This document shows, piece after piece, positions 36,549 to 36,915 of a stretch of DNA of 64,000 nucleotides (the first letter of the stretch is position 1; each line of letters opens with the position of its first letter). Source of the stretch: Escherichia coli (GTDB lineage Bacteria; Pseudomonadota; Gammaproteobacteria; Enterobacterales; Enterobacteriaceae); NCBI RefSeq assembly GCF_003334315.1, contig NZ_QOWR01000015.1; one strand, given 5' to 3'. The notes under the pieces were generated by a model. It did not search any database, was not told the origin of the DNA, and saw only the letters and a program-made list of their open reading frames with translations. The position numbers and the translations under genes are program-made.

Positions 36549-36915
36549 CTTGTCCTCATTGAATAAGCGGGGCTGACAACTTTTCATGGTGAAATTATCA
36601 CCACGAAACCCAGCATCGGAGCCACTCCCGGTCCCCAACGCAATCGTTCTCTTTTGCCTGAACTTACCACCGAAACAGACTGTTAACCATAAGGTAAAAT
36701 TGATCATCACATTAGCTTATGGTTAAAAAACGCCAAAATCGCGACAGAATAAAAAACCAAAAAACACACCAGTTTCTATATAAAGATGATGCCATTAGAA
36801 AGCTAATTTGAATAAGGCAATATTAAGAGCTAAAAAAATGTCAAAAAACACTAAATCAAAAAATAATGACATTAGAAAATATAATGCGAAAACGGAGGTG
36901 AAATTAGTTTATTTC
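36549..36915 (-). promoter_or_regulatory. gcvTHP promoter / upstream regulatory region with phased A-tracts
   Basis: About 370 bp non-coding, AT-rich, with many A5-A7 runs; lies upstream of gcvT and downstream of the ubiI terminator. Confidence 0.5.

Follow-up and report, generated by a model that had tools for sequence, protein, structure and literature searches.

The question raised by this locus is what a dense cluster of A-tracts is doing directly in front of the gcvTHP operon of Escherichia coli. In the 64,000-nucleotide stretch of E. coli chromosome that we analyzed (the window), the cluster lies inside the 446-bp gcvT-ubiI intergenic region (36549-36994). A sequence-only reading had marked off 36549-36915 as a long, AT-rich and noncoding regulatory region whose repeated A-runs were consistent with intrinsically bent DNA and a multiprotein architecture at the glycine cleavage promoter. 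We find that this cluster belongs to the known control region of gcvTHP, which is already explained; it is ordinary, with nothing new about it. In our reading, to which we assign a probability of roughly 85%, the A-tract-rich DNA is the spacer of this well-characterized upstream control region, with its Lrp/GcvA loop architecture. Location, motifs, conservation, spacing, and predicted curvature were established here, and the binding of GcvA, GcvR, and Lrp, as well as looping and bending, are taken from the literature.

The setting of the region was read from the list of open reading frames and its agreement with the K-12 annotation. All five genes concerned lie on the minus strand. The aminomethyltransferase gene gcvT (35454-36548), the first gene of gcvTHP, begins with an ATG at 36548 and is followed by gcvH (35041-35433) and gcvP (32049-34922); its upstream neighbor is ubiI (visC; 36995-38197), preceded by ubiH (38220-39398). 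This gives the gene order ubiI-gcvT-gcvH-gcvP with the control region directly upstream of gcvT, and the placement of the A-tract region upstream of gcvT was correct, since it adjoins the gcvT ATG. The extent first given to it was too short, as the intergenic region runs on to 36994, and both the ubiI terminator hairpin and a CRP box lie beyond the former end point. A 701-bp query around the feature returned one match in each of 5426 complete E. coli genomes (5426/5426). Compared with K-12, the window differs at 18 positions over the 847 bp around the intergenic region; within the intergenic region itself there are 13 substitutions and a single 1-bp indel, a deletion, for 97% identity. We also retrieved 120 enterobacterial loci with a degenerate pattern from the gcvT N-terminus, and in most of the Enterobacterales loci examined ubiI precedes gcvT across a spacer of 330 to 600 bp.

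The transcription start of gcvT can be fixed from published mapping. In a genome-wide study of transcription start sites (TSSs) it lies 108 nt ahead of the ATG of K-12, and the −10 string listed for it is cggtGGTAAGTTcagg; the study equates it with gcvTp, the known sigma-70 promoter, whose earlier mapped start is 3 nt away (PMC2760140 supplement). The −10 string is identical to positions 36671-36656 on the minus strand of the window and the 108-nt start corresponds to 36655, giving a TSS range of 36652-36655. From the same string and a conserved block, the −10 hexamer TAAGTT was located at 36661-36666 (minus strand). The gcvT TSS was not found in the PMC3415461 supplement. Based on the mapped start, the gcvT transcript has a 5′UTR of ∼104 to 107 nt (36549-36655, minus strand), with a GC content of ∼0.5 and the Shine-Dalgarno sequence GAGGA at its end. 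When the region was aligned across 40 Enterobacteriaceae and identity was scored relative to the window, the core promoter reached 0.77 and the Shine-Dalgarno block 0.82. Neither the weak gcvTp nor the ubiI terminator was picked up by a generic promoter/terminator scan, whose single match fell inside the small ORF yqfI. We considered a promoter UP element, an A/T-rich tract at ∼−40 to −60 that the alpha C-terminal domain would contact, as a role for the A-runs and rejected it: the nearest A-run is at ∼−73 to −78, and −34 to −69 is taken by a GcvA site. RNA families other than the glycine riboswitch were likewise rejected for the leader and spacer, where Rfam at E ≤ 10 yielded only chance-level matches, far under the gathering scores.

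The repeated A-runs noted in the sequence-only reading are real. Six plus-strand runs of A6 or A7 occur within 139 bp (36725-36863), and 367-bp frames placed here hold up to 8 A/T runs of at least 5 bases, against a mean of 1.2 for the 64 kb, which makes this the densest such cluster in the window. The most proximal A6 run (36725-36730), which reads as T6 on the gcvT strand, sits at ∼−73 to −78, next to GcvA site 1 on its upstream side. It is followed by A6 runs at 36751-36756 and 36759-36764, by an A7 run at 36832-36838 that abuts the yqfI ATG, and by A6 runs at 36843-36848 and 36858-36863 inside yqfI. Five of the six, all except the proximal one, lie inside the Lrp-region spacer (36744-36881). 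A seventh plus-strand run, at 36938-36943, sits in the loop of the ubiI terminator. The 200-bp GC minimum here, 0.29, is the lowest of the window. The AT-richness ascribed to the whole region is confined to ∼36680-36925 and does not extend to the leader at 36549-36655, whose composition is balanced. As an array, the A-run centers show no helical phasing (R = 0.38 at 10.5 bp, Rayleigh p ∼0.4), and AA/TT power in the 10 to 11.25 bp band is unremarkable, being attained by 37% of shuffles. The sole pair of runs 11 bp apart is that at 36832 and 36843. The AA/TT periodogram peaks at 9 and 12 bp instead.

Around these runs, the motifs of the known gcv regulators can be recognized. By their CTAAT cores, three putative GcvA sites can be placed on the minus strand, one promoter proximal and two distal. 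Site 1 (36686-36721, core 36715-36711) overlaps the −35 region and covers ∼−34 to −69, which are reportedly the footprint limits given by Wilson et al. in 1995. Site 2 (36866-36893, core 36875-36871) and site 3 (36894-36923, core 36907-36903) lie at ∼−214 to −241 and ∼−242 to −271, the limits that papers from the Stauffer laboratory are said to report. Between sites 1 and 2 is the A-tract-rich spacer, with a GC content of 0.25, which was delimited by the Lrp footprint of ∼−92 to −229 that Stauffer and Stauffer are said to have described between 1994 and 1999. A box resembling the PurR operator, ACGCAATCGTTCTCTT, overlaps the TSS at 36638-36653 with four mismatches to the palindromic consensus used, and PurR reportedly binds around +1 of gcv (Wilson and coworkers, 1993). 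Farther upstream, a CRP box, TGTGATGGGTATCAAA, with one mismatch to TGTGA-N6-TCACA, occupies 36958-36973 and is centered ∼−313 from the gcvT start; Wonderling and Stauffer are said to have found in 1999 that CRP acts at gcv from a position centered at −313. With +1 set at 36652, every one of these footprints falls on its motif, which is an internal consistency check and not an independent proof. For Lrp, the consensus YAGHAWATTWTDCTR with up to four mismatches occurs 9 times in the 138 bp of the spacer, compared with a window average of 1.0 and 5.1 in composition-matched shuffles (p = 0.09); the excess over these shuffles is not significant. At the far end of the region, RNA folding gave an intrinsic terminator for ubiI (36929-36952, minus strand), in which a hairpin of AUCUCCCGG, a loop, and CCGGGAGAU is followed by UUUUCC. 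The terminator, 43 nt beyond the stop codon of ubiI, folds with −20.8 kcal/mol (z = −4.1; no equally stable structure among 200 shuffles).

Published work bears on several of these assignments. GcvA footprints with CTAAT cores have been reported upstream of gcvTHP (PMC5002191), and a GcvA site based on the RegulonDB matrix, CATAAGGTAAAATTGATCATCACATTAGCT, is listed in the PMC2760140 supplement. This matrix site corresponds to 36689-36718 of the window, i.e., to site 1. In the model described for gcv, GcvA and GcvR form a repression loop in which DNA bending is assisted by Lrp, and glycine releases the loop (PMC13104608). The published mechanism stresses bending induced by Lrp and not intrinsic bending.

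Conservation across the 40 Enterobacteriaceae separates the regulatory blocks from the DNA between them. Conservation peaks in the PurR-like box (identity 0.89), and the TCACA half of the CRP box is highly conserved. GcvA sites 1, 3, and 2 score 0.83, 0.79, and 0.73, respectively, compared with 0.46 for the A-tract spacer. The poorly conserved A-run segment between conserved blocks is what we take to be the Lrp-binding segment. As for the multiprotein architecture proposed earlier, it is borne out by the three CTAAT cores, the PurR-like box, the CRP box, and the −10/TSS element in conserved blocks, together with the published work on GcvA, GcvR, and Lrp. Spacing is held much more tightly than sequence. 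In all 42 species that have both cores (42/42), the CTAAT of site 3 is separated from that of site 1 by either 192 bp (11 species) or 193 bp (31 species), and the position of the site 2 core is also conserved relative to site 1. Leader length in these species ranges between 133 and 170 bp, apart from a single species at 239 bp, and the spacer holds anywhere from 0 to 7 runs of at least five T. The A-tracts as such are not conserved, and only AT-richness and predicted shape are kept. A spacer that appears, from these alignments, to be tolerant of substitutions but not of indels is what a phase-dependent loop predicts.

We then come to the shape of the DNA. Curvature was predicted with three dinucleotide wedge models (Bolshoy-Trifonov, De Santis, and a pure AA wedge) whose parameters were entered by hand. 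Synthetic controls returned the expected values, namely 65 to 77 degrees per 30 bp for a phased A6 array, 2 to 5 degrees for an array with a 15-bp period, and ∼20 degrees for random sequence. In all three models local curvature peaks at ∼36770 and ∼36838 and reaches the 99.96 to 99.98th percentile of the 64 kb at the second of these. The net predicted bend of 36740-36870 is 95 to 112 degrees, above the 99th percentile for 130-bp separations in the three models, and the end-to-end compaction of segments of 120 to 160 bp is among the lowest 0.1 to 0.2% of the window. In these models the two local bends add, and the predicted bend stems from two clusters and not from a classical phased array. It also exceeds that of dinucleotide-preserving shuffles of the spacer (p = 0.015 for Trifonov, p = 0.03 for De Santis), which indicates that the arrangement contributes and not composition alone. 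The curvature prediction thus comes out in favor of the intrinsic bend suggested in the sequence-only reading, at the level of prediction. Among the 42 species, the median predicted bend is 76 degrees, compared with shuffle means of 37 to 44 degrees (median z of 1.4-1.9), and the bend lies above shuffles at p ≤ 0.05 in 14 to 26 of them; the species are related, and the across-species p-values overstate independence. Our literature search found no paper in which gcvT is tied to measured curvature. A paper on the HU regulon has gcvH in a table only.

Variation within E. coli follows the same pattern. Across nine divergent haplotypes, 32 of the 48 variable columns fall in 36731-36869 and none in 36591-36730, and the proximal A6 run (36725-36730) is invariant in these haplotypes; among species it is moderately conserved. 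All nine retain the predicted bend, at 88 to 117 degrees with the Trifonov model and 58 to 102 degrees with that of De Santis. When a 51-mer from the spacer center was used in megablast, the form in the window was found in 1484 of the 5426 genomes and the K-12 form in 1286, leaving ∼2650 genomes with spacer forms matched by neither 51-mer. Among the nine, the haplotype of the window alone carries an inverted repeat, ATTAG-AAAG-CTAAT (36794-36808), which is absent from K-12 and the seven other haplotypes. With this repeat come two further GcvA core pentamers, set 1 bp closer together than in the ATTA-N7-TAAT arrangement that has been described for GcvA sites (PMC5002191). An extra GcvA-like repeat in a common E. 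coli haplotype could alter the regulation of glycine cleavage between strains.

The region is not entirely noncoding, as had been assumed. Positions 36838-36921 on the plus strand, divergent from gcvT, are yqfI (b4754 in the K-12 annotation), which encodes the 27-residue peptide MSKNTKSKNNDIRKYNAKTEVKLVYFK and overlaps the distal A-runs as well as GcvA sites 2 and 3. YqfI was detected in K-12 by immunoblot of a chromosomal SPA-tag fusion and was also picked up by ribosome profiling (PMC6001520). The stretch GCTAAAAAAATGTCAAAAAACACTAAATCAAAAAATAATGAC, the second of the two examples of A-rich noncoding DNA offered in the sequence-only reading, in fact holds the yqfI start codon and the first 11 codons. 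In the window yqfI is intact, with G11D relative to K-12. Inspection of the sequence by eye revealed no convincing −35/−10 pair for yqfI, and we assigned it no promoter. Within Escherichia, E. albertii and a third species cluster share with the window an intact ORF, and outside of the genus an intact copy was found in only one Citrobacter; most of the remaining genera show a frame that is interrupted by stops or that lacks an ATG or a stop codon at this place. The N-terminal residues vary even within E. coli (NN, IR, or NH, and G or D at residue 11). Haplotype EC931 carries a substitution in the yqfI ATG (36838) and haplotype LP26 one just past the start codon (36842), the latter being an N-terminally incomplete pseudogene in RefSeq; in both, the yqfI start was missed by our search pattern. 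We also rejected the C-terminal pattern IRKxNAKxxVKLxYFK, in which YqfI resembles translated DNA from distant species, as a case of protein conservation: the frame is often broken by a stop or lacks a start, and the pattern falls on GcvA sites 2 and 3. From the alignments, the apparently conserved C-terminal peptide of YqfI is best read as conservation of the binding sites.

Fixed spacing, a drifting sequence, and a persistent predicted bend fit the published loop between GcvA and GcvR that is assisted by Lrp. In such a mechanism, transcription would begin at 36652-36655 from the weak sigma-70 promoter with its TAAGTT −10 hexamer. GcvA, a LysR-type regulator, would bind the proximal site 1 and the distal sites 2 and 3, which lie ∼160 to 190 bp farther upstream, and the ∼140 bp between them, with five of the six A6-A7 runs, would be bound by Lrp at multiple positions. 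Lrp would play an architectural part by bending the spacer so that GcvA at the distal sites (3 and 2) can reach site 1 and RNA polymerase. Without glycine, GcvA and GcvR would form a repression loop; with glycine, GcvR would be released and GcvA would activate transcription. CRP, from the box at −313, and PurR, from the box over +1, would modulate this output. The A-runs would supply an AT-rich, narrow-grooved spacer that, by prediction, is already curved by ∼100 degrees, making the Lrp-assisted loop cheaper to form. The A-runs would curve the spacer in advance and narrow its minor groove, to the benefit of Lrp binding and loop closure, and we infer that in this way intrinsic curvature contributes to the loop.

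How much weight the curvature itself should carry is where readings diverge. It is possible, though we regard it as a tentative proposal, that the spacer between the GcvA sites is selected for shape and length and not for sequence, that its intrinsic curve pre-forms the loop and Lrp merely tightens it, and that yqfI is a genus-specific ORF born in this scaffold, in which GcvA sites 2 and 3 determine the C-terminal half of the peptide and the A-runs determine its Lys/Asn-rich N-terminus. This proposal follows from a spacing that is fixed within 1 bp and a bend of ∼75 to 110 degrees that is kept while bases and run number turn over; in E. coli itself, the spacer is a hot spot of polymorphism in which several haplotypes are common. 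The main rival explanation holds that the A-runs are a by-product of an AT-rich, degenerate Lrp spacer, such that intrinsic curvature plays no role, Lrp imposes all of the relevant bending, and any AT-rich sequence of equal length would serve. The missing helical phase of the runs speaks for it, as do the range in run number across the 42 species at constant site spacing, the fact that no other part of the region is as weakly conserved or as polymorphic as the spacer, and the attribution of bending to Lrp in the literature (PMC13104608). Two results are harder to accommodate: the predicted bend beats shuffles in the window (p = 0.015-0.03) and in 14 to 26 of the 42 species, and it is kept in nine of nine E. 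coli haplotypes despite 32 variable sites. We consider this explanation doubtful, yet a serious one.

The remaining alternatives account for the cluster by something other than spacer architecture. The distal runs (36832-36863) could be maintained for the Lys/Asn-rich N-terminus of YqfI, given that the runs at 36843 and 36858 are AAA, AAC, and AAT codons, that the A7 run abuts the ATG, that the peptide is made in K-12 (PMC6001520), and that the ORF is intact in all three Escherichia groups. We think this improbable, because T-runs and predicted curvature are still there in most other Enterobacteriaceae, in which the ORF is broken or startless; the N-terminal codons change freely within Escherichia (NN to IR or NH, S to P, N to K), with EC931 and LP26 substituted at or just after the start codon; the conserved half of the peptide is the C-terminal one, which lies over GcvA sites 2 and 3; and the proximal runs (36725-36764) lie outside of yqfI altogether. 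H-NS generally prefers low-GC, curved DNA, and the lowest GC of the window combined with predicted curvature would suit an island that is silenced in the manner of H-NS, or one that was acquired horizontally, in place of dedicated promoter architecture. This is very unlikely for an island that is present once in every one of the 5426 genomes, is syntenic between ubiI and gcvT across the Enterobacterales, and is flanked by conserved regulator sites; our literature searches, none of which was aimed at H-NS, met no link between H-NS and gcvT. Lastly, in other bacteria gcvT is commonly preceded by a glycine riboswitch (PMC13104608), and the upstream region might be imagined to encode such a cis-acting RNA. 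We give this next to no credence: an Rfam scan of both strands of 36300-37200 at E ≤ 10 produced no match to the glycine riboswitch (RF00504), and the A-run region is upstream of the TSS and is therefore not part of the gcvT mRNA. The Lrp/GcvA spacer of the gcvTHP control region is the reading that we retain.

As a discovery this carries little weight, since dissection of the region began in the 1990s and the interpretation offered in the sequence-only reading is the accepted model. The added value is modest: each A-run is now placed relative to the known sites, and the noncoding label is corrected by yqfI. Spacing and predicted curvature are also shown to be conserved where sequence is not, and the spacer would offer a clean and testable case of a bacterial promoter constrained at the level of shape.

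The closest known system is the K-12 gcvTHP control region studied by the Stauffer laboratory, which the window resembles in locus, gene order, promoter, CTAAT cores, and PurR and CRP boxes. It differs from K-12 in that its 13 substitutions and 1-bp deletion are clustered in the Lrp spacer, in the extra ATTAG-AAAG-CTAAT repeat, and in having D instead of G at YqfI residue 11. Like classical curved DNA built of phased A-tracts, whether of the kinetoplast type or in front of promoters, the spacer has A6-A7 runs and high predicted curvature and lies upstream of a promoter; unlike such DNA, its runs are unphased and its predicted bend comes from two local clusters. The gcvT genes of Bacillus, Neisseria, Burkholderia, and Streptomyces that are controlled by glycine riboswitches share the pathway and the inducer, glycine, but in the window, which has no riboswitch, control is exerted by proteins at transcription initiation. 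With Lrp as an architectural protein at other promoters, such as ilvIH and pap, the region has in common multiple candidate Lrp sites, degenerate and AT-rich, over ∼140 bp and bending that joins distant regulators; the difference is that at gcv Lrp mainly serves GcvA and GcvR and is not known to contact RNA polymerase itself, a point drawn in part from PMC13104608. Finally, in having proximal and distal sites for GcvA, the region resembles those at which other LysR-type regulators bind distant sites and bend the DNA.

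Upon comparison of nine sampled divergent E. coli haplotypes of the gcv control region (the gcvT-ubiI intergenic DNA, 36549-36994), including the window and K-12, we found that 36731-36869 is a polymorphism hot spot that holds 32 of the 48 variable columns. No variable columns were found among these haplotypes in 36591-36730, which carries the promoter, the PurR box, and GcvA site 1. At least three spacer haplotypes are common and divergent from one another, and in 1092 genomes the intergenic region is only 90-95% identical to the window. One of the 5426 complete E. coli genomes searched matched the gcvT-ubiI region on a record typed as plasmid rather than chromosome; here the replicon may have been mis-assigned, or a plasmid may carry a chromosomal segment.

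Midway along the Lrp spacer, the A-tract-rich segment between GcvA site 1 and sites 2 and 3, the window haplotype carries the inverted repeat ATTAG-AAAG-CTAAT (36794-36808), which contributes two further candidate GcvA-type core pentamers. The repeat is absent from K-12 and the seven other sampled haplotypes. Compared with the window, these are changed at several of positions 36792, 36793, 36796, 36803, and 36804, with all five changed in K-12. A 51-mer of the window type was found in 1484 of the 5426 genomes.

To the ubiI side, the control region contains the small gene yqfI (27 aa, 36838-36921, + strand), which overlaps the distal A-runs as well as GcvA sites 2 and 3, the sites coinciding with the conserved C-terminal half of yqfI. 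Intact yqfI ORFs were observed in Escherichia and, outside that genus, in just a single Citrobacter; yqfI looks like a genus-restricted ORF within regulatory DNA. Inspection by eye revealed no convincing -35/-10 pair for yqfI, and no promoter is assigned to it here.

All three dinucleotide wedge models agree in placing the predicted curvature maximum of the whole 64 kb at about 53060-53200, around TTTTACAGAAAATTACAGAAAAAGG, in the non-coding stretch separating the ORFs at 52158-53054 and 53222-53962 (both on the - strand). Within 36720-36870, the AA/TT periodogram peaks significantly at 9 bp and again at about 12 bp, a level reached by none of 1000 shuffles, and shows no significant peak at 10-11 bp. 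The 9 and about 12 bp peaks may arise from the codon periodicity of yqfI or from the spacing of Lrp sites.

The control region is also interrupted by a mobile element in some strains. In NZ_CP075462.1, a 768-bp IS1 has inserted at a point corresponding to window 36936-36943, generating an 8-bp target duplication. The element interrupts the A-run loop of the ubiI terminator hairpin (36929-36952, - strand), between the CRP box (36958-36973) and GcvA site 3, and the insertion should place the CRP box 768 bp farther from the gcv promoter. The insertion is present in about 10 complete genomes; every carrier among the matches listed was isolated from a pig, pork, a pig farm, or cattle.

Lastly, a published TSS supplement (PMC2760140) lists a second gcvT start, supported by a single read and labelled new, 81 nt upstream. 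This K-12 position, -81 from the gcvT ATG, corresponds to about 36628 in the window and lies within the leader.
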